Of a stretch of 64,000 bases of DNA, positions 3,794 through 63,800 are shown piece after piece (the first letter of the stretch is position 1; each line of letters starts with the position of its first letter). The stretch spans positions 80,662,001 to 80,726,000 of the forward strand of contig JBNRSN020000019.1 in NCBI GenBank assembly GCA_051313645.2, in the 5' to 3' direction. Both the position numbers and the translations under genes were made by a program. Source of the stretch: Centroscyllium fabricii (Eukaryota). The notes under the pieces were generated by a model. It was not told the origin of the DNA, made no database searches, and was given only the letters and a program-made list of their open reading frames with translations.

Positions 3794-4317
3794 TGTGGTA
3801 ACCCATATTGTATATATTTACCACTGTGGCGGCACGCCCACTAGGACACCGAATCCGCCTCGGGAACACTGCGGGGCATGGCCCCGCTCATCGGGTGACG
3901 CGATGACATCACCACGACTTCCGGCGTGATGACGTCACCAACGGCGGGCAATTTAAATAAGCCTGCTTCGAGTGGTTCACTCTCTTCTTGTGTTACTGTG
4001 ATGCATTAAACAAGTGTTTTTTCTGTCTCTCTGGCTCACGCGTGGTTCCTAGGCCTTGCTGGCGCTACACCACTGCATTATTGTTGCCAACAATTGGCTG
4101 TGTGTGATACACAGCCTGTAATACTGTCGTGGAGCCAGGTCAGCCACACCTCTAACTCCTCCCCCAGGTGAGGCCTTTATAGGTGAGGACTGACCGAGGC
4201 TCCCTCATTCTGTTCTGATGTTCGTTCGGAGGGTAGCTCCAAAGTAAGTTATTAAAAGCCTATAGTTACGGTAACTACTCGTCCAGTCTTTTATTAAGAG
4301 ATATTGACGATACGTCA
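3794..4317 (+). mobile_element. Solo LTR of family B, inserted in the family-A gag
   Basis: tgtggtaacc...gatacgtca, homologous to the LTRs at 50593 and 55155. 5-bp TSD CTCGG at 3789-3793 and 4318-4322. Confidence 0.9.
3825..4069 (+). mobile_element. Solo LTR of family A, nested in the family-B solo LTR
   Basis: tgtggcggca...gctaca, homologous to 4891-5100. 4-bp TSD CCAC at 3821-3824 and 4070-4073. Confidence 0.9.
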
Positions 4318-5100: not shown

Positions 5101-5359
5101 GTATCAATGACCTCGGAGACGAGAAGTTACGAGGTGAACAAAAGGCTTTTATTAGCTAAAAGGTTGGGCATGCACCAGCTAGTCGACTGCTCCCGGAATG
5201 AATGGGGGGAGGGAGACAGTCGCTTATATACCTGTCCTGGGAGGAGGAGTCACAGGCGGGGTTAGCATGGGCATGCCCAGACAAGCAATACACAAAGAAC
5301 TATATACAGTGTTACAGGCCGTTGGTTATATACATATATATACAGAGTGGTTTACCACA
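5101..5359 (-). mobile_element. Family-C LTR, interrupted near one end by the family-A element
   Basis: Ends ggtttaccaca; shares caccagctagtcgactg and cttatatacct with the solo LTR at 31453-31732. Confidence 0.75.
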
Positions 5360-5463
5360 AGCACATTATGGCTTAACACAATGGCAAGTTACACTGGCAA
5401 AAAGATCCCAGCAAACTATCCAGATATTACTGTGTTGAGATATTGAAAAAGCTTGCGCACACT

Positions 5464-6833: not shown

Positions 6834-9180
6834 CACTCATAATCCGTTTCAAAGAACGCATGCTAAATAGTATAAACTTAAAGCTATTCATCAGACCATT
6901 ACAAATTTATTATACAGAGTGACATGGCTGGTGTTAAATTTTAAGTACTGAGGGTGCATATCAGAAATTCAGGCCCAGCAGCCCACAGGATTTTCGACAT
7001 ATGGATGCTGCTGAAATTCCTGATATGCGCTCCCAACACGTAAAACTCTGTGCTGGGTACACACTGCAAAGCACATCTACCATTATGTAAGTGTGACAGA
7101 TTGTACCCTCATTTCATCAATATGTGAGGAAAATCTCTTGAATTGTTTTATGCAACAAAGTTAGATCAAACATGTTTTAATTAAAATCTTAACTCAGCTG
7201 ATTTCAATTCTCTTTGTTTGCACATACAACGGCTTAACTGTTGGGTGACTTTTCCGATATTAGGCACTGAAATGCTGAGACTATGAAGCAGAAAGTATAG
7301 CACTCACCAGTCTCAGATGCAGCAGCCATCTGATTTCTGCTGTGGAAAGAGGTTTGGTGAGTCTTCAGTACAAGGACTCAACTTAGAATGGAGATTGTCT
7401 GTTTGACAGCTTCTGAAACGTCATACATTGACATCCTCTGTCACCAGCATTCCCTCAGTTGGCCTGCTAAGCCCACAGGGTGGGCTTAACAAGGTCAATC
7501 AAGGGAAAATAGCGTGGGTTGGCCGGACGTCGTTAGGGGTGGGACTAAATCCCCAAAACCAGCAGTCGCGCCCCCACTGACAAAATCCAGCCCACAATGT
7601 AGGTGGAAAGTGGGAAATAGCCTGAAGTTGCAGCTCTCATAGGCCATTTAAAGGGATGTGCAGAGACAAAGGGGGGGATTTTCGGAGGGCCGTGAGGGCG
7701 GGTTTCCGGTGGGGCGGGGCTTAAAATTCCAAAACAGGGGGGTCCCGGCCCCTCCCGCCGGATCCCCGCCGCTTTGCAGTTTTCAACCGGCATGTCTAGC
7801 CGGCCCGAATCTTTCCCGCCCGCCGCCAGTAGGGTTGATCATTGAGCTCATTAGGGGCCCTGAATTGCCATGGGTTATCCCATTTCAAGGGCCCCTCGTG
7901 ATTTTTGAGCCCTTCCCACCCACACCCCACTATCCTGAAACCCCGCCGGTAAAAGTTAGCGGGATCTCAGCCGGCTTGGTCACTTTCACCTTCAAGGCAT
8001 TGAAGGACCTACAGCAGAATGCCTTCCAGGCCTTCAACACCCTGGAGGTGTAAGTGACTCCCTTCTCTGAGGAGCAGCTGTGAAGAAAACACTCAAAACA
8101 CTTACCTTGACAGATGCTGAAATGCTTCACCGAGAGACGGCCCCAAACTGTGAGCTTTCCAGCGAGTCCTTAGACCGGTCACTCAACCCACTTGGGCTTT
8201 GAGATTGGTTGCACTCCATTGTGATGTCACAATGGACTGTTTCCATAGAAACTAACAACACACAGTCCTTAGAAGTGTCAATCAAGCCTCCGGCTCTCAT
8301 CTGCAGCCCGCTGCTTTCCGACTGGAATCCTTCAATTGGCAGGGGCTCCCCACACGAAGGCCAATTGAGCCAAAATTGCATGGGGCTCCCAGGCCCTTAG
8401 ACATTCGGGACAGAAACCTGATCCAGCCAAAACCCGCCAGGTTCCCACACCTTTGCGAAAATCTCCCCCAATGTCCTGCCAGGACAATGGAACAGCACCT
8501 CAGATGCAACTAGAAGAAGTAAAGCAAAAGAGGGTTTCCTTTGCTCGGGCACCTTGCCCACCTAGGCAGGAGGTGGCTACTTGAGTTCAGGCAATGATAA
8601 TCATCTAAAAGACATGGGAGCAGTTAAATAAAACATTTAACAGCCAAGGTACAGCTAGGCAGTGCTGCACTATATCAAGTCGATAGCAAAGTATGCAGGC
8701 CACTAACAGTTTCCCTTCATCCTGATTGAGGTTTCATGCTAAGCCCTCACAAAACAGTTTGTTTCAAATTTCTAAATGTTCTTCAAATGTCCAACATCTC
8801 AGAAATACTTCTATGCTTGCAGAACAAAGCAATTTACAACAGGAGGAATAGGACCAGAAATGGAGGAGGTTCTCTCCTCACTTAATTACCCCACCCCACC
8901 CCAGTCAACATGAACATTCTGGAATTTGTCATAGGTTGGTTCTTCTCCTTTAACTCTTAGGTTGGCTCTTCCCCTTTAACTGGTTATCACCTTGTTAGCT
9001 CTACTGCCTGCACCTGATTGAACAGCCCAGATTCACCAGTGGTAATCAAGAGCTGTATATAAGCTCCTACTTTCCACCTAGAGGTTGCCAGATCGTTATT
9101 CTTTCTGACTGTGATACCTGTGTTTAGTTCCTAGCTCTCTGATCCTGTCTGTTCGAGATACTGACCTGCTTACTGGAAAT

Positions 9181-9390
9181 TTGGATTCTCTTCTGCTTGA
9201 AATCTGTTTTGGATTTGTCGCTCCCATGGACGGACTACCCGGTATTGTACTGTTTCTGAATTTGGATTCTCTTCTGCCTGAACTCTGTTTTGGATTTGTC
9301 GCTCCCGTGGACGGACTACCCGGTATTGTACTGTTTCTGAATTTGGATTCTCTTCTGCCTGAACTCTGTTTTGGACTTGTTGCCTCCGTG
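9181..9390 (+). repeat. 81-bp tandem repeat (~2.6 copies) inside the chromovirus LTR; same array at 13521-13730
   Basis: ttggattctcttctgc recurs at 9181, 9262 and 9343. Confidence 0.9.
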
Positions 9391-9709
9391 AACTTTCTGC
9401 CGTTATTGACCTACTGTTTCCTATGTCTTTTACTGCTCAGAAATAAAGGAGTTTACTTCTACATATGTTTTCGGTGTATTGCATTTGGGCCCAACCTACA
9501 ACCATTACAGAACGATCTGGCCGACGTCCTCCAAAACGGTCTCAAGAGATTTTCGTGGCACCCAGGTCTACTGCGACAGCAAGGTCACAGTCAGTGGGTC
9601 CCGAACCTATGCAGTTGGGTCGCACCAGTCTCTCATTGGAGGAGCATGAACGACGCCGCCAGGGGATTCTCTGTCTGTACTGTGGCCAGGCCGGCCATTT
9701 TGTTTCCCG

Positions 9710-12700
9710 ATGCCCAGCAAAAGGCCGGGCTCACCAGTAGATGGGGTCGTACTGGTGAGTCGAACTCCTACAAGACTCTCTCCCAATCAACGACCCTTGT
9801 GCCAGGCCAGACTTCTTCTTCCCAGTGGATCCCAGACTCTCGCCACCTTTATTGACTCTGGAGCCGACGTTAACATTATTGATGAGGATCTTGTCACACA
9901 GCTGGAGATTGACCGGGTTCCACTGCCGCAGCCGGTTCCTGCCAACGCCCTCGACGGTCACCTCCTGGGAACAGTGACACATCAGACCTCACCAGTTCAC
10001 ATGCTTATGTCTGGTAATCATCATGAAAGTATTCAGTTTCATATCCTGAAATCACCTCGGCTTCCTTTGATTCTGGGACACACTTGGCTTCGCCGCCACA
10101 ACCCCCACATTGACTGGAACACGGGAACTATTCTGGGGTGGAGTTCCTCCTGTCACCAGGTCTGTCTGAAACAGGCTACCGTCTCCCGACAGCCATTAAC
10201 ACCCCTTCCCGCTTCAGATCTTTCGGTGGTCCCCACTGAATACCACGATTTTAGGGAGGTATTCAGCAAAGCTAGAGCCACGTCGCTGCCTCCACATCGC
10301 CCCTATGACTGCACCATTGATCTGCTGTCAGGGTCTTCCCCACCCAAGGGACGCCTGTATTCCTTGTCTGCACCTGAGAGGGAAGCCATGGAAACGTACA
10401 TCAGCGACTCTATGGCGGCGGGGATCATCCATTCCTCTTCATCCCTGCTGGGGCTGGATTCTTTTTTGTTGGTAAGAAGGACGGGTCGCTGCGACCATGC
10501 ATCGACTACAGGGGTCTTAATGACATCACGATAAAGAACCGGTATCCTCTTCCTCTCATCTCTTCTGCCTTTGAGTTGCTACTGGGGGCGATCATCTTTA
10601 CCAAGCTTGACCTTCATAACGCCTATTACCTGGTCCGGATCCGAGAGGGCGATGAATGGAAGACAGCTTTCAACACTCCCTCTGGACATTATGAATACCT
10701 CGTAATGCCGTTCGGGTTAACCAACGCCCCGGCGGTATTCCAAGCCTTGGTGAATGACGTGTTAAGAGACATGCTGAACCGGTTTGTGTTCGTTTACATG
10801 GACGACATTTTGATTTTTTCTAAGTCTCGTGATGAGCATGTTCACCATGTCCAGACTGTCCTGCAACGGCTTCTCGAGAACTCGTTATTTGTGAAGGCGG
10901 AGAAGTGTGAGTTTCACGTCACTACCGTATCTTTCTTGGGGTACATCATTGCGCAGGGGAGTGTGCAGATGGATCCAGAGAAGGTGTCAGCTGTCGCGTC
11001 TTGGCCTATTCCGGAGACACGTAAACAGCTACAGCGGTTCCTGGGGTTCGCTAACTTCTATCGAAGATTCATTCGCGGCTACAGCACGGTAGCAGCCCCG
11101 TTATCGGCCCTTACCTCCTCTAAGGTGCCGTTTCTGTGGTCTTCTGCAGCGGAGGAGGCTTTTCGAGGTCTCAGGTCCCGGTTCACCTCTGCTCCCATTC
11201 TCCAGGTGCCTGATCCGGATCAGCAGTTCGTGGTAGAGGTGGACGCATCAGATGTTGGAGCAGGGGCTATTCTGTCCCAACATTCTGCTTCCGACCAAAA
11301 GCTACATCCCTGTGCCTATTTTTCTAAACGCCTGTCCTCGGCTGAGATGAATTATGACATCGGGAACCGGGAGTTACTGGCGGTCAAGATGGCATTGGAG
11401 GAGTGGCGCCATTGGCTAGAGGGGACCAAGCTGCCGTTCCTAGTCTGGACAGACCATAAGAACCTCGAATACATTCGCACGGCCAAGAGGCTGAATTCAC
11501 GGCAGGCTAGGTGGTCCCTCTTCTTTACCCGTTTCAACTTCACCCTCTCCTACCGGCCTGGTTCTCGCAATGTCAAGCCTGATGCTCTGTCCCACCAGTT
11601 CCAGAAGGAGGAGAGTTCCACTCCTGGATCTGACTTCATCCTTCCAGCTCCATGTCTGATTGCTGCCGTTACGTGGGAGATCGAGGAGAGGGTGAGATCA
11701 GCCATGGAGAATCAGGCTGGACCCAGCGGTTGTCCTCCCGACCGTCTATTCGTTCCCAAGGACCTTCGACCTGATGTTCTCCAGTGGGCCCATGCTTCCA
11801 AGCTTTCCTGCCATCCAGGGGCTCAAAGGACCAAGGAGGTTATACTGCGGAGGTTCTGGTGGGATACTCTGGAAGAAGACACCCGGGAGTTTGTCAACGC
11901 CTGCTCGGTCTGCAACCAACACAAGCCGTCTCATCGGGCTCCCGCTGGTCTTCTGCAACCTCTGCCGGTGCCACATCGTCCTTGGTCCCACATATCCTTG
12001 GACTTTGTTACCGGTCTGCCTCCATCCAAGGGACTAACCACTATCCTGACAGTGGTGGACCGATTCAGCAAGATGGCTCATTTCATACCTCTGCCTAAAC
12101 TGCCCTCGGCGAAGGAGACGGCTGAACTTATGCTGCAACATGTTTTCCGTCTTCATGGTCTTCCTGTCGACGTAGTCTCTGATCGGGGTCCACAGTTTAC
12201 GTCAGTATTCTGGAGGGAGTTCTGCAGTCTGATCGGGGCCACAGTCAGTCTGTCTTCGGGTTTTCATCCGCAGTCCAACGGGCAGTCTGAACGCATGAAT
12301 CAGGAGATGGAGAAGGCTCTACGATGTATGGTCTCCCAGAATCCCTCTTCCTGGTCCCAGTTACTCCTGTGGGTAGAGTACGCCCACAACACCCTGACCA
12401 GTTCCGCCACCAGACTCTCCCCGTTCCAGTGCGCCTATGGGTTCCAGCCCCCATTGTTGGAGAGGGAGGTTTCCTGTCCGTCCGTCCAGTCATTTATTCA
12501 TCGTTGTCGCCGGACATGGGACCAGGCACGGACTTCGTTGCTTCGCTCAGCGGACCGCTACTCTGCTGCTGCCAACCGTCGTCGCTCGGAGGCTCCTAAC
12601 TATCAGGCTGGTCAGAAGGTGTGGCTCTCCACTAAGGACCTGCCCCTCCAGGTGGAGTCTAAGAAGCTAGCTCCCAGGTTTATCGGTCCCTTCGAGATCC

Positions 12701-13183
12701 AGAGGGTCATCAAACCAGCGGCAGTGAGACTCAAGCTTCCTCGATCCATGCGGGTTCATCCCACTTTTCATGTGTCGCGGGTCAAACCAGCACGAGAGAG
12801 TACATTGGTGCCTGTTGCCACGCCCCCTCCGCCTCCTCGTATGCTCGACGGGGGGTTGGTCTACACTGTTCGCCGACTAACTTCGCTCCCGTCGCCGAGG
12901 GAGAGGACTTCAGTACCTGGTGGACTGGGAGGGGTATGGACCAGAGGAGCGGTCCTGGGTTCCTGCTCATCACATTGTTGATCCTCAGCTTATGGCCGAC
13001 TTCCACAGAAGGCATCCCGACCAGCCGAGTAGGAGGTCTGCGCTCCCTGGCGATCCTGGGCAAGGGCCCAGTTCCGTGCATCCTCCTGAAACCCTGGAAG
13101 AGGAGGTGCAATCCTCTGATGAGGAGAATTCCCTTCATTCTAGTGATGAGATGGACGTGGATGAGTGTCCCGAGGAATATTAG
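9710..13183 (+). pseudogene. Chromovirus pol (PR-RT-RH-IN-chromodomain), frameshifted near 10440 and 12880
   Basis: ORFs 9710-10534, 10576-12981 and 12920-13183 carry successive domains in different frames. Confidence 0.88.
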
Positions 13184-13854
13184 TCCCTCCTCCGCACCCC
13201 TCCGCCCACCCGACTCCGGCATTTGGGGTTTGGGACGTCGGGAGCCGTCCCTTGAGGGGAGGGTTCTGTCATAGGTTGGTTCTTCTCCTTTAACTCTTAG
13301 GTTGGCTCTTCCCCTTTAACTGGTTATCACCTCGTTAGCTCTACTGCCTGCACCTGATTGAACAGCCCAGATTCACCAGTGGTAATCAAGAGCTGTATAT
13401 AAGCTCCTACTTTCCACCTAGAGGTTGCCAGATCGTTATTCTTTCTGACTGTGATACCTGTGTTTAGTTCCTAGCTCTCTGATCCTGTCTGTTCGAGATA
13501 CTGACCTGCTTACTGGAAATTTGGATTCTCTTCTGCTTGAACTCTGTTTTGGATTTGTCGCTCCCGTGGACGGACTACCCGGTATTGTACTGTTTCTGAA
13601 TTTGGATTCTCTTCTGCCTGAACTCTGTTTTGGATTTGTCGCTCCCGTGGACGGACTACCCGGTATTGTACTGTTTCTGAATTTGGATTCTCTTCTGCCT
13701 GAACTCTGTTTTGGACTTGTTGCCTCCGTGAACTTTCTGCCGTTATTGACCTACTGTTTCCTATGTCTTTTACTGCTCAGAAATAAAGGAGTTTACTTCT
13801 ACGTATGTTTTCAGTGTTTTGCATTTGGGCCCAACCTACAACCATTACAGAATT

Positions 13855-15594: not shown

Positions 15595-18500
15595 AGCACC
15601 TATGGGACTTTCCCATCTGACAGGAAGACATCAAGCAGGAATTTAAGGAACTAGGAAGGAAACTGAGAGAGAAAACGAATAATGCCACGATTTCTGGGAT
15701 CCTACCAGTGCCACGGGATAGGGAGTGGAAAAACAAAAAAAGAATGCGAATAAACGCGTGGCTACAGGATTGGTGCAGAAGGGAGGGCATAAGTTTCGTG
15801 GACAATTGGGGATCTTTCTGGGGAAGGTGGGATCTGTATGACCGGGACGGCTTGCACTTGAACCGAAGGGGCATCAACATTCTGGGTGGGAAACTCGCTT
15901 CGGCCATAAAGGGGGATTTAAACTAATTGGCCAGGGGGATGGGGAAACGGGCAGGGAAACAGAGGGGAGACCAGGGAACAACGAGGAACAGGGGGGAGAA
16001 CCAAGGACGCAGGGAAGTGACAGGGGACTGAAATGCGCCTACTTCAATGCAAGAAGTATACGGAACAAGGCAGGAGAACTAGGGGCATGGATGGCGACAT
16101 GGGACTTCGATGTGGTGGCCATTACAGAGACATGGCTGGAGCAGGGACAGGACTGGATGCTTGGGGTTCAGGGATACAGAAGCTTCTGGAGGAGCAGGGA
16201 GGGAGGAAAGCGCGGGGGGGGAGTAGCACTGCTGGTCAAGGACAGCGTGACAGCTACAGAAAAACACTTTGAGGGGGACACACGAACGGAGGTAGTATGG
16301 GCGGAGCTTAGAAATAGGAAAGGGGCGGTAACGTTAGTGGGAGTCTTTTATAGACCACCAAATAGTAACAGGGAGGTGGAGGAGGAAATTGCGCGACAAA
16401 TAAAGGAAAGATGTGGGGGACATAGGGTAGTTATCATGGGAGATTTCAATTTCCCTAATATAGACTGGAATCTAGGAAGGTCAAAGAGTGCAGATGGAGA
16501 GATTTTCTTACAATGCGTGCAGGAAGGTTTCCTGACACAATACGTGGAGGAACCAACAAGGCGGGGGGCAACGTTGGACCTGGTTCTGGGAAATGAACCA
16601 GGCCAAGTGGTAGAACTGGGGGTAAGGGAGCACTTTGGGGACAGTGACCACAACTCGGTGACGTTCACAATAGTAATGGAGAAGGATAGGAGCATGAGGC
16701 AGGGTAAGGTATACAGCTGGGGGAGGGGAAATTACGACAGGGTTAGGCACGATTTAGCTAACACCAATTGGGAACGGGAACTTGCTGGGAGAGGAACGGA
16801 AGAAAAATGGAGAGTGTTCAGGGAGCAAATTATGAAAGCCCTGGATAAGCATGTCCCGAGTAGGATGGGAAACAAGGGAAAGAGGAGAGAACCGTGGATC
16901 ACGAAAGAGGTAGAACAATTAGTAAAGAAGAAGAAGGAGGCATATGATAGAATGAGAAAGCAGTGTACAGCAGGGGCAGGAAAGGAGTACAAAGAAGCAA
17001 GGAAAAAACTGAAGAATGGGCTAAGGAAGGCAAAGGGAGGGCATGAGAAGGCATTAGCGGGAAGGATAAAGGAGAACCCTAAGGCTTTCTATGCTTACGT
17101 AAGAAATAAAAGGATGACTAGGATAAGAGTAGGGCCGATCAAAGACGGCAAGGGAGAAATGTGCACGGAGTCAGAGGAAATTGGAGAAACACTAAATGAA
17201 TATTTTGCATCCGTGTTCACAAGGGAGAGGGAACTAAAAGTAGAGGAGGAGTTCAAGATACAAGGGGAAAGGATGGGGGAAGTAAATATTCAGAGTGGGG
17301 AGGTATTAGATATTTTGGAGAAACTGAAGGTAGACAAATCTCCTGGGCCGGACGGGATATATCCAAGGATTCTCTGGGAAGCGAGGAACGAAATCACAGA
17401 GCCACTGACCTCTATCTTTAGTTCCTCGCTATCCTCGGGGATAGTCCCTGAGGACTGGAGAGAGGCGAATGTGGTTCCCATATTTAAAAAGGGGAGCAGG
17501 GACGTGCCAGGGAACTACAGACCAGTCAGCCTTACCTCGGTGGTCGGAAAGGTGATGGAAAGGGTCCTGAGGGACAGGATCTACGACCATCTAGAAAGGG
17601 GCAAATTAATCAGGAGCAGTCAGCACGGATTCGTTAAGGGCAAATCGTGCCTGACCAACCTGATAGAATTCTTTGAAGAGGTGACCAAGTGTGTGGACGA
17701 GGGAAAGGCGGTTGATGTCATATATATGGACTTCAGCAAGGCGTTCGACAAGGTCCCGCACGGTCGACTCATGAAGAAAGTAAGGAGTTGCGGGGTAATC
17801 AACGAAGTGGTGGGATGGATTGAGAACTGGCTGGCTCAGAGGAAGCAGAGGGTAGTGGTAGAGGGCCAATACTCGGGTTGGAGACCGGTCACCAGTGGGG
17901 TACCACAGGGGTCGGTGTTGGGGCCACTACTATTTGTAATCTTTATCAATGACTTGGAGGAGGGGACTGAGGGGTGGGTCAGCAAATTTGCGGATGACAC
18001 AAAGATTGGGGGAGTAGTGGATGAGGAGGAAGGAAGTAGAAAGATTCAGAGGGATATAGATAGGATGCAGAGCTGGGCTGAAGAATGGCAAATGGAGTTC
18101 AACACGGGGAAATGCGAGGTGATGCACTTCGGTAGGGCAAATAGGAAGAGGGAATATAGGGTCAACGGCAGGGTCCTGAGTGAAGCAGAGGAGCAAAGGG
18201 ATCTGGGAGTATATGTACACAGATCATTGAAGGCTGCCACCCAGGTGGACAAGGCAGTAAAAAAGGCCTATGGTGTATTGGCCTTCATCAACAGGGGAAT
18301 AGAGTTTAAGAACCGGGAGGTCATGCTACAGCTGTACAGGTCACTGGTGAGACCACACTTGGAGTACTGTGTGCAGTTCTGGGCACCGTACTACAGGAGG
18401 GATGTGGAGGCGCTGGAGAGGGTGCAGAGGAGATTCACCAGGATGCTGCCGGGAATGGGGGGAAAGTCGTACGAGGAGAGGTTGAGGGAGCTGGGACTCT

Positions 18501-18897
18501 TCTCCCTGGAACGGAGAAGGAAGAGGGGGGACTTAATAGAGATGTTTAAAATGATGAAGGGGATCGATAGAGTAAACGTGCAGAGACTGTTTCCCCGGGT
18601 GGGAAGAACGACAACAAGAGGGCACGAGCACAAGATTCAAGGAGGAAGATTCAGAAGGGATGGCAGGGGCAAGTTCTTTACGCAGAGAGTGGTCAGGGAA
18701 TGGAATAGGCTACCATCTGAAATAGTGTATGTGGACAGTCTGGGTGCTTTTAAAAGGATGATGGATAGGTACATGGAGGGGAAGGAAGAGTAGGGGGGAC
18801 AGAAAAAATCAGAGACGGACTAAGCGCGGCACTACATTGAGGGCCCAAGGGCCTGTACAGTGCTGTATGTTCTATGTTCTATGTTCTATGTTCTATG
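15595..18897 (+). mobile_element. Young 5'-truncated CR1 LINE: ORF1 esterase-like C-terminus, intact ORF2, 3' UTR and (TTCTATG)n tail
   Basis: ORF1 ends ...DGLHLN...GDLN* at 15926; ORF2 is uninterrupted; microsatellite tail at ~18870-18897. Confidence 0.95.
15917..18793 (+). CDS. CR1 ORF2 (APE endonuclease plus reverse transcriptase); frame open from 15917, first ATG at 16091
   Basis: YFNARS, ITETW, GDFN and SDHN endonuclease motifs; GVPQGSVLGP and KFADDTK RT motifs; no stops. Confidence 0.93.
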   Translation, partial: FKLIGQGDGETGRETEGRPGNNEEQGGEPRTQGSDRGLKCAYFNARSIRNKAGELGAWMATWDFDVVAITETWLEQGQDWMLGVQGYRSFWRSREGGKRGGGVALLVKDSVTATEKHFEGDTRTEVVWAELRNRKGAVTLVGVFYRPPNSNREVEEEIARQIKERCGGHRVVIMGDFNFPNIDWNLGRSKSADGEIFLQCVQEGFLTQYVEEPTRRGATLDLVLGNEPGQVVELGVREHFGDSDHNSVTFTIVMEKDRSMRQGKVYSWGRGNYDRVRHDLANTNWERELAGRGTEEKWRVFREQIMKALDKHVPSRMGNKGKRREPWITKEVEQLVKKKKEAYDRMRKQCTAGAGKEYKEARKKLKNGLRKAKGGHEKALAGRIKENPKAFYAYVRNKRMTRIRVGPIKDGKGEMCTESEEIGETLNEYFASVFTRERELKVEEEFKIQGERMGEVNIQSGEVLDILEKLKVDKSPGPDGIYPRILWEARNEITEPLTSIFSSSLSSGIVPEDWREANVVPIFKKGSRDVPGNYRPVSLTSVVGKVMERVLRDRIYDHLERGKLIRSSQHGFVKGKSCLTNLIEFFEEVTKCVDEGKAVDVIYMDFSKAFDKVPHGRLMKKVRSCGVINEVVGWIENWLAQRKQRVVVEGQYSGWRPVTSGVPQGSVLGPLLFVIFINDLEEGTEGWVSKFADDTKIGGVVDEEEGSRKIQRDIDRMQSWAEEWQMEFNTGKCEVMHFGRANRKREYRVNGRVLSEAEEQRDLGVYVHRSLKAATQVDKAVKKAYGVLAFINRGIEFKNREVMLQLYRSLVRPHLEYCVQFWAPYYRRDVEALERVQRRFTRMLPGMGGKSYEERLRELGLFSLERRRKRGDLIEMFKMMKGIDRVNVQRLFPRVGRTTTRGHEHKIQGGRFRRDGRGKFFTQRVVREWNRLPSEIVYVDSLGAFKRMMDRYMEGKEE

Positions 18898-31125: not shown

Positions 31126-31452
31126 GTTAAAAAAATTCTGTACTCGGTTTCCTCCCCCTTGCATTTTCTCTCCCTGCTTTCAAAATCCTCCTCTTTGGCT
31201 GTGCTTTTTATTCCCCATCCTAACTTCTCCACTCTCTTCCCTTTTCCCATCTTCAGTGTCCATTGCATCCCTTTTCTTGTTATAAAGCATTGAGAGACAT
31301 CTTCCTGCGCGTGAGGAGCACGATACAAAGATAAGTTACTGTTACTGTTTTGGAATCATAGAAACATAGACGATAGGAGCAGGAGTAGGCCATTCGGCCC
31401 TTCGAGCCTGCTCCGCCATTCAATGAGATCATGGTTGATCTTTGGCTGAGAT

Positions 31453-31732
31453 TGTGACCTGAAATAACGACCTCATAGAAGAGTAGTTAGATGAAGAAAC
31501 AATTAGGCTTTTATTCACTACAAGCTGGGACATACACCAGCTAGTCGACTGTCCCCAGGTATGGCCGGGGGATGGGAGGCAGCCACTTATATACCTCTTC
31601 CAGGGAGGGAGGAGTCGTGGGCGGAGCCAACCTGGGCATGTCCCAGTAATCGTATCACTGTACAGGTATTACATCAAATACATGTAGGTTAACTATATAC
31701 ATCCAATACTTATGATAAACGGGTTTATCACA
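31453..31732 (-). mobile_element. Family-C solo LTR inserted in a CR1 tail
   Basis: TG...CA termini; TSD GAGAT at 31448-31452 and 31733-31737. Confidence 0.85.
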
Positions 31733-49990: not shown

Positions 49991-50864
49991 CAGTATGGAC
50001 TTGAACGGCGAACGGTTGAAAATCATAGAACAACTATCGCAGACCAGCCACCACAGTCAGTGAGGGAGGTGTGTTACTGCCTCAGCGACCAGTTCTTCGA
50101 ATTACTTTATTGGGTACTTTTACTTTCTATTGCTGTTTGAATTACCTGGGTTTTTTTGTATAGTAAACTATATGTTAGCTTTACTGTTGGACAACTGACA
50201 CTTCCATATCTGCAAAATGAAAGAACGACCGACTGTAAGATATAATAAAAGTGAAGATATTTTATTTTATATTTTAGTGTATATGCTGTAGGTGTTTGTC
50301 ATGGTTTTTTCTGGTGCATTTTCCCTTGCGTGCCATGAAGTTCTGTGTGTTGACTGTTGCTGTGGCCTACAACTGGATGCCCCCATAGTTGAAGGAGTAT
50401 CACTGGAGACTGCTGCATAGCCAACTGTAGGAGAGACACTGCCTGTATCTACAAGCAGAAGTGCTTACATCAGTCCCAGGAATCTCCTTTGCCAGAGTCT
50501 GTGTGGGCTGTTTGCTTTCAGAGCCAACCTCTGCTGTCACTTGTGCAGGGCCGTATGATGTTACAGTACGATCACTGACGTGAGTGTCACTGTGACGTAT
50601 CGTCAATTCCCTTAATAAAAGACTTCGACGAGTAGTGACCTTAAACTACAGGCTATTATTAACTAACTTTGGAGCTACACTCTGAACGGACATCCAGAAC
50701 AGAATGAGGGAGCCTGGTCAGTCCTCACCTATAAAGGGCCTCACCTGGGGGAGGAGTTAGAGGTGTGGCTGACCTGGCTCCACGACAGTGTTGTAAGACA
50801 GTGTGACAATATTACAGTGGTAAGCTATACAATACGGTTACCACATTCACCCCTTCTTGAAAAT

Positions 50865-53800
50865 CTAAGTCCGGCGGGGTGAATGGACAGACCAGTTCAT
50901 TATAAGCTTGTCCGGCGGTCGTGTCTGTCTGGAGGGTTCTGGTAAAAGTTCCTTATGTTCCGTCCCGTTCGGGTCCGGTAGTGGTGACAGTGGCGCTGGT
51001 GCCAAAATTTCGGATGCTGGTGGTCTCAGTTGATCCGAGCCATCGGAATGGTGGTCTTGGGCTGGCCACGGCTGGGGCTCTGGATACCTCGGAGGCCACT
51101 GTAGATGCAGGGGGTGTTCCAAATACTGTGGCTGGGCGGTCTGCTGCCCGACCAGGGGCTCTGTTGTGGTGCTCCCGGCGGGTGCCAGGTCCCTGATGGA
51201 GATGGTGTCCTCGCGCCCGTCCGGGAACTGCACGTAGGCATATTGGGGATTCACATGCAGGAGCTGCACCTTGTCCACCAGGGGGTCGGTCTTGTGGCCA
51301 CGGACGTGTCTTCTAAGGAAGACCGGCCCTGGTGTCATGAGCCATGGAGGAAGAGCTGTCCCCGAAGTCGACTTCCTGGGAAAGGAAAATATCAAGTCAT
51401 GAGGGGTGGCGTTAGTGGCCGTACACAGTAGAGAGCATATCGAATGTAGCGCGTCTGGGAGGACTGCCTGCCAATGGGCCACTGGAAGGCCTCTGGACTT
51501 CAGAGCCAGGGTGACCGCCTTCCAGATGATCCCATTCTCCCTTTCTACCTGGCCGTTCCCCCGGGGGTTATAACTGGTCGTTCTGCTCGTGGCAACCCCT
51601 TTCTGGAGCAGAAACTGACGCAGTTCATCGCTCATGAACGATGACCCCCGGTCGCTATGAATGTAGCTGGGGAGACCGAAAATGGCGAACAGCGTGGTGA
51701 AGTGTTTTATCACCGTTGCGCTCATCATATCTGAGCAGGGGAAGGCGAAGGGGAAGCGGGAGAACTCATCTACGACCGTGAGGAAGTATGAGTTGCGATC
51801 GGTGGTGGGGAGGGGGCCTTTGAAGTCCACGCTTAGACGTTCAAAGGGGCGGGTGGCCTTAATGAGGTGCACCGTGTCTGGCCGGAAAAATTGGGGTTTG
51901 CACTCGGCGCAAACAGGGCACTCTCGGGTCATAGCCTTGATCTCCGTGATGGAGTAGGGGAGGCTACGGGATCTAATGAAGTGGGCGAGTCTAGTGACAC
52001 CCGGGTGACAGAGGCGATCGTGGAGATCCTTCAGCCGGTCTAGCTGCGCACTGGCGCACGTTCCCCTGGACAGTGCGTCCGGGGGTTCATTGAGTTTACC
52101 TGGTCGGTAAAGAATGTCATACTCGTAAGTCGAGAGTTCGATCCGCCACCGCAGGATCTTATCATTCTTGATCTTACCCTTCTGTTTATTATTAAACATA
52201 AACGCCACCGACCGTTGGTCGGTGAGAAGGGTAAAACGCTTACTGGCCAGGTAATGACGCCAGTAGCGCACGGCCTCCACGATGGCCTGGGCCTCCTTTT
52301 CCACTGCAGAGTGGCGAGTTTCGGGTCCCTGTAGGGTGCGGGAGAAAAACGCTACGGGCCTGCCTGCCTGATTCAGGGTGGCAGCAAGGGCAAAGTCCGA
52401 AGCGTCGCTCTCCACCTGGAAGGGAATGGATTCATCAACGGCGTGCATGGTCGCCTTGATGATGTCTTCCTTTATCCGGGCGAATGCCGTTTGGGCTTCT
52501 ACCGAGAGGGGGAAGACGGCAGCCTTGAGGAGTGGTCTAGCCTTGTCCGCGAACTGTGGGACCCATTGTGTGTAATAGGAGAAAAATCCTAGGCATCTCC
52601 TCAAGGCTTTGGGGTTGTGAGGTAGGGGCAGTTCTTGTAGGGGGCGCATACGCTGTGGGTCGGGGCCGAGGACCCCGTTCTCCACCACGTATCCGAGGAT
52701 GGCGAGCCAGTCTGTATTAAAGACACATTTGTCCTTGTTATACGTAAGGTCCAGCTTTTCCGCCGTGTCAAGGAATTTGGCCAGATTGGCATCGTGGTCC
52801 TGCTGGTCATGGCCGCAGATGGTCACGTTGTGCAGGTAAGGGAAGGTGGCCCGCAACTCGTTCTGGTCAACCATGCGGTCCATCTCCCGTTAGAACACTG
52901 ACACTCCGTTGGTCATGCCGAAGGGGACCCGGAGGAAGTGGTAGAGCCGACCGTTCGCCTCGAAGGCGGTGTACGGGCGGTCGGCTTTCCGGATCGGGAG
53001 TTGGTGATACGCCGACTTAAGATCGATTGTGGAGAACACCTTATGTTGTGCGATCTGGTTGACCATGTCCGAGATGCGGGGGAGGGGGTAGGCGTCGAGC
53101 CCGGTGTAGCGGTTAATGGTCTGGCTGTAGTCGATAACCAGCCGCTGTTTCTCGCCAGTCTTCACCACTACTACCTGGGCCCGCCAGGGGCTGGTGCTGG
53201 CTTCAATTATCCCCTCCTTCAGCATACGCCCGACCTCCGACCTGATAAACGTGCGATCCCCCACACTGTACCGCCGACTCTTAGTAGCAATAGGCTTGCA
53301 GTTGGGGTCGAGGTTGGCGAACAGTGAGGGGGGGTCGATTTTCAGGGTGGAGAGGCCGCAGGCCGGGCTCCGCTTTGGGAAGGGACTGTCCCGGCTACTG
53401 ACGGTGAGGGGGGGCAAGGTCCCGCCGAACTCCATTGTCACGCTCTTGAGGTGGCACTGGAAATCCAGACCTAGTAAGGCTGGGGCACACAACTGCTTGA
53501 GGGTGTACAATTTAAAATTACGGTACACACAACCCTTGACTGTGAGCGTGACGGAGCAGTAGCCGGTGACGTCCGCGGTGCGGGACTGTGAAGCAAGGGA
53601 GACTTCGTAGCGCATGGGCAGGATCTGCAGTCCATAGCGCTGCGCTGTATCAGGGTGGATAAAGCTCTCTGTGCTTCCAGTGTCGAACAGGCAATTTGTA
53701 ACATGGCCGTTGATTTTGATCGGCATGATCGAGTTCGATAGTGTGTGTGGCCTAGCCTGATCGACTTTAGGTACGGCTGAGGCCGAAGTGTGCCTGTGTG

Positions 53801-55129
53801 TGTGGGGGCCCCCTGCTGGTTGGGGTTGTACACAAGATGGCGTCGCCCGTGGTTCGCACATGGCGGGGCGCTGGAGACAAAATGGCGGCGCCCATGGCTC
53901 GCACATGGCGGGCCGCTGGAGACAAAATGGTGGCTCCGAGGGGTCGCACATGGTGGGCCGCTGGAGACAAGATGGCGGCGCCCGTGGTTCGCACGCGGCT
54001 GACCGCTGTGAGCGCGCTGGCAGCGCCCGTGGTTCGCATGCAGCGGGCCGCGGTGGCTGGGTTGGCGGTGCCCGTGGTTCGCACGCAGCGAGCCGCGGTG
54101 TTCGGGTTGGCGGCGCCCGTGGTTCGCACACAGCGGGCCGCGCTGGGTGTGCTGCTGCTGGCGTTGGGGGGTCGCGCATGGCCGGCCGTGGCTGAGCTTG
54201 GCGTGCCGTGGGTGCAGCCGGCCTCTGCTGCATCAGGGTGGGAGATGGGGGTGCTTTTCTTCTACCCCCGGACCGTCGCTGGATCGCGCTGCTATTGCAG
54301 CTTACCTGAGGTCTGGTGGAGCTTTCACAGGCTGCGCTGTTGTACCTGGAGTTGGGCGCTGCTGGTGCTGATCTGCAGGCCTTCGTGTAGTGTCCCTTTT
54401 GGAGCACCTCTCACAGGTCGCGGTCCTCGCTGGGCATCTCGCTCGTGGATGCAGTCCCTGACCGCAGAAGTAGCACCGTTTGTCTGCCTTTGCGGCTGTC
54501 GCAGCCATCATGGGGGTCTCGACCCGTTGTGGTGCTGCCCAGGCCTGGGCCCGTTGTGGCGCGGCCCACACATCGTAGGCCTGCGGGTCTGTGCCGCTGT
54601 ACGCCTGCAGCTTGTTGCGTGCCCCTTCGACAGAGTTCGATATAGAAATCGCCTCTTCTAAAGTCAGAGAGTCTTTCTCCAGCAGCCGCTGGCGGGCTTC
54701 AACGCATCTCAGGCCTGTTGCGTAGGCATCACGGACGAGGAGATTCACCTCCTCTTCTGCTGTCCGTGCTTGGCAGCCACAGACCCGTACCAGAGCCTGG
54801 AGTGCTTGCTCAAATTGTTCATTTGTCTCACCCGGTAGTTGTGGTCTGGTCGCGAGCACATGTCTGGCGTAGACCGAATGGACCGGGCGCTCATAGCATT
54901 TCCTCAGCTTTTCCACTGCCACTGGGTAGGTTTTGGCGTCTCGGATGAGGGAGAATACTCGGCTGGAGATCCTAGACCGGAGAACTTGCAGTTTGTTCCC
55001 GTCGGTTGTAGCCTTGGCGGCGTCCATATAGGCCTCCAGGAGACCGAACCAGTGTTCGAACGTGGTGGCGGCGGCTGGCTCCTGTGGACTGGTGTCCAGC
55101 TTTTCTGGCTTTACCGCACCGCTCTCCAT
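50865..55129 (-). pseudogene. Family-B gag-pol with a frameshift (~54400), an in-frame stop (52890) and RT motif YLHN
   Basis: ORFs 54302-55129 (gag), 52890-54407 (protease LFDTGS, RT N-terminus) and 50865-52883 (RT C-terminus, RNase H, integrase). Confidence 0.9.
53830..54190 (-). repeat. Coding tandem repeat (39-45 bp units) between gag and protease
   Basis: Repeated A(A/M)CEPRAPP peptide, about 8 units. Confidence 0.85.
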
Positions 55130-55604
55130 TTCAAATTTTCTTAGTTAATAAAATTGACGTATCGTCCAATTCCCTTAATAAAAGACTTCGACGAGTAGTA
55201 ACCTTAAACTACAGGCTTTTATTAACTAACTTTGGAGCTACACTCCGAACGAACATCCAGAACAGAATGAGGGAGCTTGGTCAGTCCTCACCTATAAAGG
55301 GCCTCACCTGGGGGAGGAGTTAGAGGTGTGGCTGACCTGGCTCCACGACAGTGTTGTAAGACAGTGTGACAATATTACAGTGGTAAGCTATACAATACGG
55401 TTACCACACACTGCTTGCTCCTGTGCTATTCCATGCATGCAATCGCTGGAGGGCCCTCACAAGGTCCACTGATCTGTGTGAGCACAGAAAGTGGGAATCT
55501 ATGAGATCTTCCCTGTGGTTGCCTGGAACCATTCTCCAAGCAAGATGAATTAGGTTGCAAGTGCTTCATATGGTTGGGGCCCCAAAGCCTCCACAGCAGC
55601 ATGA

Positions 55605-60856: not shown

Positions 60857-63800
60857 TGTGGTGATATTTACCCTCTGCCCAGTAGGGGGAACATAGCATA
60901 AACAGAAAGTGAAAGTATATATTAAACAGTGAGCCTCGAGTAATGGCTGCTCCCACAAGCTGTCTCTGTCTCGGTCATTTGAGCACATTACATGGTGTCA
61001 GAATTGAGATCTGAACCCACAATGGAACTAACTTCCCCAGTGAAACCAGTCAGCTCCCGGTGAGTGAAGGTTTACGATAGCTATTTAAGCCAGGATGGAG
61101 ATAACCAGAAGGGACTGAGAGAGAGAAAAAAAAGTGTACTTACTAAGTGCTGCTTAGCTTACTATCATGGCCACTCAAAGTCCTGCATTCTTTCAGATTT
61201 CTCCCCCCTCTAAGTATGATTTTACACGGCCGGAAGAGTGGCCGTTGTGGATCAGCAGATTTGAGCATTTCAGACAGGCTTCAGGCCTTGATAAACAGAC
61301 ACAGGAAAAACAGGTCAATACACTATTATATTCCATGGGAGCGGAGGCTGAAGCGATCGTCCGGTGCAGGAATATTATGGCTGATCAACTGAAAAGCTAT
61401 GACACAGTTAAAACGGAGTTGTCTAATCATTTCATCCTGCGGATGAATTTGATATTTGAACGTGCAAGATTCCATAGGTGCGTGCAGGAGAGGGGGGAAT
61501 CATGTGATAGCTTCATCAAAGCGCTACATGAGCTCATCAAACACTGTGAATATGGAGATATGCTGGATGGACTAATTTGTGACAGATTGGTTGTTGGACT
61601 AAGGGATCTTAAACTCTCTGGAAAATTACCTCTCAGTTGACAAAGCAAAAACACAGGTTTTCCAAAGTGAAACAATAACGAAACAGAAATCAATGCTTCA
61701 GAAAGATAGTAATGAGGAGGAGGAGGAGGAGTACATTGAAACCATAAGTGCCCCCCGACAAGCAGGTCCCCAAAAACATTTTTCTACCAACTCAAGCCAA
61801 ACTGACTCACGTGAATATGTACAGAGGCCTCGCACTGGAACTCAAACTGGAACACATTTCCAACCACAAAAGCGGAGTTGCAGATGGTGTGGCCGGAGTA
61901 CACACAATAGACAAATCTGTCAAGCCAAAGATGTTAGCTGCAGGAATTGCCAGGAAAAGGGACATTTTGCTGCAGTTTGCCAATCCACACCTGCGGTTGC
62001 TGAAATATTAAATAGCGTTCCTGGGGCCAATTGGAGATGGGCAGGACCAGCCGTGGATCATCACTCTAAGCCTGTGTGGTCACATGACTGAATTCAAAAT
62101 CGATACAGGGGCTGATGTCACTGTCATCCCGGAGTGCCTCTACAACGACCTAGGTCTAGAGGCTCTTCAGAGCACCTCTAAGATTCTTCAGGGACCTGGT
62201 CAAGTCCCGTTGAATGTCAGAGGAAGATTTTCAGCTACCCTGACCCATGGTCCACGGTCTGCAAAGCAGGTTGTGTATGTGGTACGAGGTCTACGGACAG
62301 CGCTTCTCGGTTGGCCCGCCAGCATTTCCCTACATCTGGTGTGCAGATTGGACCTACAAGTAGCAGAGACAGTATCTACGGACCTCGAATGGGAGGTCAG
62401 ACAGCAGTTCCCCAGACTGTTTCAAGGCATTGGGCGACTGCAAGAAGAGTATTACATTCGCCTCAAGCCAGAGGCCAAACCTTTTGCTCTCTCTACACCC
62501 CGACGTGTCTCACTCCCCCTTATAACCAAAGTTAAGGAGGAACTAACCCACATGGAGCAACTGGGGATAATTGCAAGAGTTGAGAAACCCACAGCCTGGT
62601 GCTCCGGAATGGTTGTAGTCCCAATACCCAATGGAAAAATCAGAATCTGCGTAGACCGAACAAAACTCAATGAAAGTGTCTGTAGAGAGCTGCATCTCTC
62701 ACCCTGCGTAGAGCACACTCTGGGGCAGCTGAAAGATGCAAAGGTTTTTACAAAGCTTGACGCTCAATCTGGTTTCTGGCAAATACCCTTGACAGAGGAG
62801 TCAAAACGTCTTACCATGTTCATCACGCCATTCGGATGTTACTGTTTCCACAGACTGCCCTTTGGAATATCCTCCACTCCTGAGCATTTCCAGTGCCGCA
62901 TGTCCCGACTCCTTCAGGGACTTGATGGTGTCTTATGCCAAATGGATGAGGTGTTGGTGTTTGGTGCAACCCAAGAACACCACAATCAGCGACTGTTTGC
63001 AATTCTCGGTAGGCTACAGCAAGCTGAACTTACTCTTAACTCCAAATGTGAATTCGCCAAAACACAGATGAAATTTCTCGGCCGGGTCATCGACCGGACC
63101 GGGGTCAGAGCAGATCCTGACAAAGTCAAGGCCCTCACACATATGGCCGCACCAAGGAATGTATCTGAAATACGCCGCTTCATGAGCCTGGTCAATCACT
63201 TGGGCAAATACATACCCCATCTAGACGATAAAACCAAACCGCTCTGGGATCTCCTCAACAGGCAGACCTCATGGTATTGGGGACCCCAGCAGTCCCAAGC
63301 TTTCACTGAGATAAAGACAGAGCTAACCACCCTGCCAGGCCTTGCACTGTATGATCCCAATACACTCACTAAAGTGTCAGCTGATGCCTCATCGTTTGGC
63401 TTGGGTGCAGTCCTTTTACAAAAGACACCTGACACTGACTGGCGCCCTGTAGCCTATGCTTCATGAGCTCTTTCAAAAACAGAGCAGCACTATGTGCAGA
63501 TTGAAACAGAGGCCCTGGCCATTAGTGTGAGCGCTATAGAGACTTCCTAATAGGCATGACATTCCAGGTCAAAATAGATCACAAGCCCCTCCTTACACTA
63601 TTGAGATCTAAAAACTTGAACGAGTTGTCCCCCCGCATTCAGCGCTTTCGAATGCGACTCATGCACTTTCACTTCGCTATATCAAATGTGCCAGGGAAGA
63701 GCCTAGCAACTGCCAACGTCCTCTCCAGAGCTCCCTACCAGCCACTGGTGGATGATTCCTCTGAGGTGCAGTGCATAGAGAATTATGTACACTCAATACT

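Follow-up and report, generated by a model that had tools for sequence, protein, structure and literature searches.

A self-complementary leader in a non-chromovirus Gypsy clade as a candidate site for self-primed reverse transcription

How might a long terminal repeat (LTR) retrotransposon start reverse transcription when no tRNA-type primer site follows its 5′ LTR? The question is raised by a 4.8-kb Gypsy element on the minus strand (55408-50593) of a 64,000-nucleotide stretch of the Centroscyllium fabricii genome (assembly GCA_051313645.2, contig JBNRSN020000019.1, positions 80,662,001 to 80,726,000; hereafter the window, on which all coordinates are given). The element belongs to the Ty3/Gypsy LTR retrotransposons, as recognized by its TG...CA LTRs, which are 97.6% identical to each other, its target duplication, its polypurine tract and the order protease, reverse transcriptase (RT), RNase H, integrase (Table 1); the window copy is broken, with a loss of frame between gag and pol and a stop codon in RT. 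Its leader runs for 25 nt from the LTR to the gag ATG (55129) and consists of a spacer A, the 13-mer TTTTATTAACTAA and 11 further bases. The initial annotation held that a TGG is missing after the 5′ LTR and that the 13-mer is complementary to an AATAAA-bearing segment of the LTR. Both statements are confirmed: the tRNA-type TGG site is absent from the window copy and from 192 loci of its clade, and TTTTATTAACTAA (55153-55141) is the exact complement, over 13 bp, of TTAGTTAATAAAA (55229-55217), hereafter the arm. We give a probability of about three in four to the reading that the leader 13-mer is the primer-binding site for self-primed reverse transcription, the RNA being predicted to be cut after ...AAUAAAA.

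The match is AT-rich (12 of the 13 bases of the primer site are A or T), and it was nevertheless found to be above chance: none of 5000 sequences made by dinucleotide shuffling of the entire LTR contained a perfect 13-bp match, and 3 of 5000 did when shuffling was restricted to the AT-rich last 90 nt. The leader/arm duplex was also part of the best predicted fold, with a z of -3.1 for the core segment 55135-55235 and of only -1.8 for the longer segment 55127-55268, which starts at the predicted 5′ end.

The leader is not a local deletion, because the LTR end, leader and ATG recur as 2927 exact copies in the 7.2-Gb genome (0 for a reversed-pattern control), a number that contradicts the loss of a normal tRNA site from the window copy alone. 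The same leader type was present in 30/30 loci from a DNA search. Searches with three other Gag proteins added families whose arms differ and whose leaders match them, and a Gag alignment search yielded 80 metagenome loci and two contigs from metagenome-assembled genomes (MAGs; GTDB; probably contaminants). A stem test with fixed windows covered 179 of the 192 loci (119 genome, 60 metagenome/MAG). Perfect stems of at least 12 bp were observed in 68/119 genome loci and 39/60 metagenome/MAG loci, many of the loci missing the stem being truncated or decayed copies. Counted by gag cluster, such a stem was present in 20 of 25, versus 3 of 600 cross-cluster leader-LTR pairs. CA-TGG in the primer position within 60 nt of the ATG was found in none of the 192 loci, two pattern hits being spurious. 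Locus L084, a candidate TGG exception, was rejected: 12 nt of its leader pair with the copy's own 3′ LTR at its end, the LTR being cut by the contig end. The self-complementary leader is a real clade-wide feature. Note that five loci (L087, L101, L102, L106 and L107) carry a clade gag with neither an LTR arm nor a clade-type leader upstream, and are rearranged or possibly captured.

The closest named proteins come from sharks and rays, and named homologues, known from proteins and not from leaders, occur in cnidarians, molluscs, a crinoid, Trichinella, an insect and a rotifer. No relative was found in the viral collection and no match in Rfam, and the ESM atlas returned generic Gag clusters only. 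In the window itself, three other families of the clade are represented by solo or partial LTRs, at 4069-4317 (+), 5102-5390 (-) and 31450-31730 (-), with the arm variants TAAGTTATTAAAA, TTAGCTAATAAAA and GTAGTGAATAAAA.

Leader and LTR were found to covary. In one subfamily, a T>A change in the arm is matched by an A>T change in the leader. In a blind test, in which 40 copies (20 with a G-type leader, 20 other) were picked by the leader base alone and two could not be parsed, leader G went with arm C in 19/19 and leader A with arm T in 19/19. Across the clade, 11 of the 13 pairs are changed on both sides (23 sequences: 22 of the 34 arms described below, plus L224), and covariation, in a set chosen for perfect stems, reached 0.68 in the true register versus at most 0.11 in slid registers. 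When up to four mismatches were allowed, 193 of 232 loci could be anchored, 121 at 13/13 and 59 at 12/13; their departures from Watson–Crick pairing (18 G-U, 22 A-C and 51 other) show no excess of G-U. Relative to five sister copies, L069 carries four private changes over 236 nt; two of them form a complementary pair, the arm change being present in both LTRs (rough p of 0.001, post hoc). This pattern suggests a primer copied into its own site and is what such copying would be expected to leave. Mixed states were seen as well: L204 has two LTRs with different arm variants and the leader of L207 fits the arm of another subfamily, which reflects either lagging correction or recombination.

The common anatomy was drawn from 109 perfect-stem loci, which reduce to 34 distinct arms (10 shark arms and 24 others, from shark-genome and metagenome relatives). 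CAA immediately precedes the primer site in 99 of the 109 loci, and the LTR end at CA was verified by the 3′ LTR in 14/15 other loci and in 12/20 genome stretches (seven of the remainder have no 3′ LTR in range and one is truncated). Pairing, which is complete by selection for 12 positions, extends to position -13 in 30/34 arms, to -14 in 21/34 and to -15 in 10/34; the duplex is therefore 13-14 bp long. The loop between arm and site measures 24-73 nt, and the leader measures 15-36 nt across the clade, without any other primer site. AATAAA or ATTAAA stands at the 3′ end of 24 arms and is absent from the other 10; in L070 and L081 the poly(A) signal lies within the loop, outside the arm. RCC follows the arm directly in 31/34 cases and pairs inside the loop above shuffles in 28/34, usually with GGY (the rows are related and the shuffle is a simple one); the RCC/GGY helix would open with a G-U pair in 19/34.

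The two other structures reported by the initial annotation fared less evenly. The competing stem within the LTR, TTAATAAAAG/CTTTTATTAA (55184-55175), is present in the window LTR, but it exceeded chance in only 5/10 shark arms and in 0/24 others. The hairpin at the LTR-leader junction is also there, but bulged by one base in the window 5′ LTR (AATTGGACG), whereas the 3′ LTR, like most sister copies, has AATTGACG; as a clade-wide feature it was not found in a test of the 34 arms that was poorly placed for it.

The arm end is preceded at 80-85 nt by a TATA-like motif in 9/10 shark arms (one TATA variant having been added post hoc) and at 51-55 nt by an initiator-like motif in 9/10. The predicted transcription start of the shark families thus lies about 39 nt 5′ of the arm; among the 24 non-shark arms, no fixed TATA position was found. 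An initiator-like AGT is also present 11 nt before the arm end, with A, G and T conserved at -11, -10 and -9. A start at this A, which would copy Tf1 exactly, is not favoured because pairing extends to -13 and -14. The G 10 nt before the arm end is nearly invariant (31/34) and sits in a TTAGT/TCAGT-like word; it may mark a second start site or an enzyme contact. Two loci, L084 (3980-4030) and L086 (in the LTR at its end), have an intron-like GT...pyrimidine tract...CAG upstream of the arm; if this is an LTR intron, the start would lie far upstream and the arm would be internal.

The arm is the likely primer because there is no tRNA site and the leader tracks the LTR base by base. Further points in favour of self-priming are the fixed position (CA plus one nucleotide), the 13-14 bp length and the RCC...GGY helix behind the arm, and the same primer geometry, with an 11-nt site, was observed in the chromovirus-like element of the window. 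Signs of copying are the compensated pair of L069 and the lack of a G-U excess in the duplex, in contrast to the G-U pairs with which the RCC/GGY helix would open in 19/34 arms. The proposal of the initial annotation that the element primes itself thus gains support from covarying self-complementarity in a priming geometry, and none of the three outcomes that it had named as refuting was obtained. In Tf1, the RNase H cut falls between bases 11 and 12 (PMC7175516), and three duplexes form a pretzel around the primer site (PMC10085805). By analogy with Tf1, the RNase H of the element's RT would cut at the arm/RCC junction, the new 3′-OH would be extended across the spacer into U5, and strong-stop DNA would be transferred by means of the R segment, 15-25 nt long, that separates the cut from the poly(A) site. 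Plus-strand synthesis would copy the primer back into the site, and a change in the LTR arm would thereby be written into the leader. With a start about 39 nt upstream, the primer of the shark families would be a capped fragment of about 52 nt and not the first 11 nt. Where the arm bears AAUAAA (24/34), the same duplex may secondarily conceal the poly(A) signal of the 5′ LTR.

Could such hiding be the whole function? In HIV-1, the AAUAAA of the 5′ LTR copy is sequestered in the helix of the poly(A) hairpin. Masking alone, with some other, unseen primer in use, would fit the poly(A) signals at the 3′ end of 24/34 arms and an upstream start, which would place the signal in R and require its suppression. 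The last seven arm bases are moreover predicted to be paired at 0.94 with the leader; in RNA truncated 25 nt past the arm, the value is 0.31 for shark arms and 0.58 for the others. Unlike in the HIV-1 hairpin, the partner here is the primer-site position, present only at the 5′ LTR; 10/34 arms have no canonical signal, the loop holds it in L070 and L081, the short leader has no other primer site, and masking requires neither a fixed CA plus one register nor intolerance of G-U. We therefore consider masking alone unlikely. The poly(A) switch put forward by the initial annotation is weakened as a main function by the 10 arms without AATAAA/ATTAAA, but the modelled pairing makes it plausible that the duplex hides the AAUAAA of the 5′ LTR as, at most, a second role.

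A primer of arm sequence could also act in trans, supplied by short transcripts that stop at the poly(A) site of the 5′ LTR, by solo-LTR RNA or by the 3′ R of a co-packaged genome, and trimmed after AAUAAAA. An arm lying on the poly(A) signal would lead one to expect short R-only RNAs, solo or partial clade LTRs are common (three in the window), and a trans primer is compatible with the covariation. Pairing in cis over 24-73 nt is nevertheless predicted to dominate, with a mean duplex probability of 0.88-0.95, and a trans primer would need the same unexplained cut plus an extra step. Priming in trans thus appears improbable, to about the same degree as masking alone.

Priming by a tRNA fragment or another host RNA, the LTR match being a hairpin of other use, has a precedent in the half-tRNA priming of Copia lineages (PMC6317226). 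Against it, the 34 different site sequences follow the LTR arm base by base, the diversity of the arms excluding one fixed host RNA as the partner; the window site is 12/13 A+T; and its longest match to 11 Lys and Cys tRNA sequences is 7 nt. A host RNA primer is very unlikely. Finally, a chance match of AT-rich sequence (to which the 3/5000 shuffles of the last 90 nt would lend some room) or a local loss of a normal tRNA site is refuted by the 2927 exact leader copies, the clade-wide presence, the covariation and the duplex carried by L084.

Several observations count against self-priming by the arm. The duplex of the window copy is weak (-9.8 kcal/mol versus -17.7 for the site of the window's chromovirus-like element). 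The 34 arms, like the covariation set, were selected for perfect stems, which makes pairing percentages circular; the copies of the blind test represent subfamilies and not independent events; 39 of the 232 loci were unanchored, many being truncated or rearranged; most mismatches among the anchored loci probably reflect decay after insertion; and the compensated pair of L069 is a single case. The transcript start and the cut are predictions from sequence, and a start 39 nt upstream would mean that the RNA, unlike that of Tf1, does not begin with the arm. Plus-strand copying of an internal primer would call for a stop, and none was found: a conserved hairpin upstream of the arm was unsupported (mean z of +0.2 for shark arms and +0.5 for the others). 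Flanking duplexes like those of the Tf1 pretzel reached p<0.05 in 1/34 and 3/34 arms, in a test window that cut into the shark junction hairpin. The tRNA comparison was limited to the Lys and Cys isotypes, priming in cis and in trans are inseparable by sequence, and the RT active-site motif is atypical: it is mostly YxDN instead of YxDD (72 of the 86 proteins that could be matched, out of 120, and 38/40 loci) and reads YLHN in the window copy (RT region 52101-53300, minus strand). The idea that YxDD accompanies loss of the duplex was rejected, as L084 and L086 have YLDD yet keep the duplex.

The RT places the clade outside both the chromoviruses and Mag. Its RT-RNase H is 28% identical to that of the chromovirus-like element at 8927-13805 and 27% identical to that of the Mag-like element at 60993, and in quick RT trees, which had no named references and no usable root and whose deep forks are unresolved, it forms one branch (length 1.2, SH-aLRT 100) apart from both. 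The best RT match among solved structures is Ty3. A chromodomain and a Tf2-type SH3 were absent from the window element and from 10/10 homologues scanned; by comparison, nearly every homologue of the chromovirus-like element of the window has PF00385 among its listed domains. The non-chromovirus status claimed by the initial annotation is thus borne out. Its comparison with Mag holds for Gag alone: the clade shares with the Mag lineage (A/B/C), represented by the element at 60993, a homologous Gag capsid (hhalign probability 96.7) and a double CCHC knuckle. By contrast, its RT lies on a separate long branch, outside the 11-row group of the 60993 element (the Mag identity of this group being itself inferred), and it lacks the TGG site of that element.

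Cigr-1 combines a Mag-like Gag with a non-Mag RT in a single open reading frame (ORF) of about 1200 codons, and its LTRs measure 245 bp; the clade resembles it, with ORFs of 1162-1239 aa. The Cigr-1 clade, known from tunicates, molluscs and annelids, is described as having two CCHC knuckles, no chromodomain, no env and an integrase after RNase H (GyDB; PMC2774666, PMC6238403, PMC8556966). All of these traits are found in our clade; they are not unique to Cigr-1 and were compared by description only. By the described features alone, the clade possibly belongs to Cigr-1, about whose priming the portions of text examined say nothing (PMC2774666, PMC6238403, PMC8556966).

With Tf1/Tf2 of S. pombe, Tj1 and other Tf1/sushi elements, the clade has in common the lack of a tRNA site, an LTR-adjacent site complementary to its own LTR RNA and an arm whose 3′ end faces U5 (PMC7175516, PMC10085805, PMC4600332, PMC5341516). 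It differs from Tf1 by a longer duplex (13-14 bp) lying 24-73 nt from the LTR end and usually on the poly(A) signal, by an arm predicted to be internal in the shark families (start 39 nt upstream), by the RCC/GGY helix at the predicted cut site, and by the lack of a chromodomain and of recognizable pretzel flanks. The clade thus likely works like Tf1 self-priming without being a member of Tf1/sushi. In the texts available, self-priming is placed in Tf1/sushi, Tcn1 and, as a prediction, TAR Copia (PMC6317226, PMC5006619, PMC3601003, PMC6238403, PMC5341516, PMC4600332, PMC8556966, PMC2864245, PMC10085805, PMC7175516). The rule used to predict self-primers among plant TAR Copia (Houba, Osr-1) and Tcn1, at least 10 nt of complementarity starting 0-5 nt after the 5′ LTR (PMC6317226), is satisfied by our clade; these predictions show that self-priming outside Tf1/sushi had been proposed earlier. 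Those elements belong to another superfamily or clade and to other hosts, and no link with the poly(A) signal is described for them in the same extracts. Literature searches, whose scope left out subscription papers, Repbase and GyDB, found no description of self-priming in the clade studied here.

Table 1. Parts of the Gypsy element and their positions in the window
Feature	Position	Strand	Remarks
Target-site duplication CAGTG	55409..55413	-	partner copy 50588-50592
5′ LTR	55155..55408	-	254 nt, TG...CA
TATA-like box TTTATAGG	55291..55298	-	predicted
Initiator-like CTCATTCT	55264..55271	-	predicted +1 = A 55268, 39 nt before arm, from spacing to TATA-like box
LTR arm TTAGTTAATAAAA	55217..55229	-	candidate self-primer; includes AATAAA (55223-55218); cut predicted at 55217/55216
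GCC(T)...(A)GGT short helix	55200..55216	-	directly 3′ of arm; clade form RCC...GGY; outside best fold of window copy
CTTTTATTAA, competing arm partner within LTR	55175..55184	-	some shark families only
Hairpin spanning LTR end	55152..55170	-	one-base bulge in window copy
Spacer A, one base	55154	-	between LTR-terminal CA and primer site
Primer-binding position TTTTATTAACTAA (candidate)	55141..55153	-	complement of arm; no TGG
gag	54302..55129	-	capsid and zinc-knuckle region; loses frame with pol within knuckle region in window copy
45-bp tandem repeat	53827..54143	.	in frame, between Gag knuckles and protease
pol	50865..54410	-	protease, RT, RNase H, integrase; no chromodomain, no env
In-frame RT stop	52892-52890	-	window copy
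Polypurine tract ...AAGAAGGGGTGAA	50846..50860	-	
3′ LTR	50593..50845	-	253 nt; arm copy differs by one change (TTAGTTAATAATA)

Three priming layouts occur within this one 64-kb window. The chromovirus-like Gypsy element at 8927-13805 (+) has, after its 5′ LTR, CA, one base and an 11-nt self-complementary site (leader AACGATCTGGC); the partner segment, 9087-9097, lies 31 nt after TATATAA in an LTR with 81-bp repeats. As judged from its sequence, this element has the classic Tf1/sushi layout and serves as an internal control. In the Mag-like Gypsy element from 60993 onward (+), TGGTGTCAGAA, which starts with TGG, follows ...ACA, in agreement with the tRNA priming that the initial annotation had suspected there. 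The window also contains a long interspersed nuclear element (LINE) ORF with endonuclease and RT at 15842-18793 (+), with 983 open codons.

The fullest version of the proposal is a pan-animal Gypsy clade in which one 13-14 bp duplex is both primer source and poly(A) switch, the primer is an internal segment, bearing the poly(A) signal, of a capped 5′ fragment some 50 nt long that is cut at the RCC/GGY helix, the RT is of the YxDN type, the site rewrites itself as the primer is copied into it and self-priming was invented a second, distinct time in Gypsy. It is offered tentatively, as we find it somewhat doubtful that every part holds. Proven self-priming is confined to Tf1-type chromoviruses, with predicted cases in a few plant lineages. 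A large non-chromovirus clade of self-primers extending from cnidarians to sharks, if true, would make independence from tRNA common in animals, and it touches the question, raised in PMC3601003, of which came first, hairpin or tRNA priming. Self-primers would presumably escape silencing that targets the tRNA site through tRNA fragments, and annotation that requires such a site misses or mis-scores elements of this kind. The RNA concerned is short (about 140 nt) and comes with natural compensated variants, so that in vitro work can directly address where the cut falls, how long the primer is and the coupling to polyadenylation.
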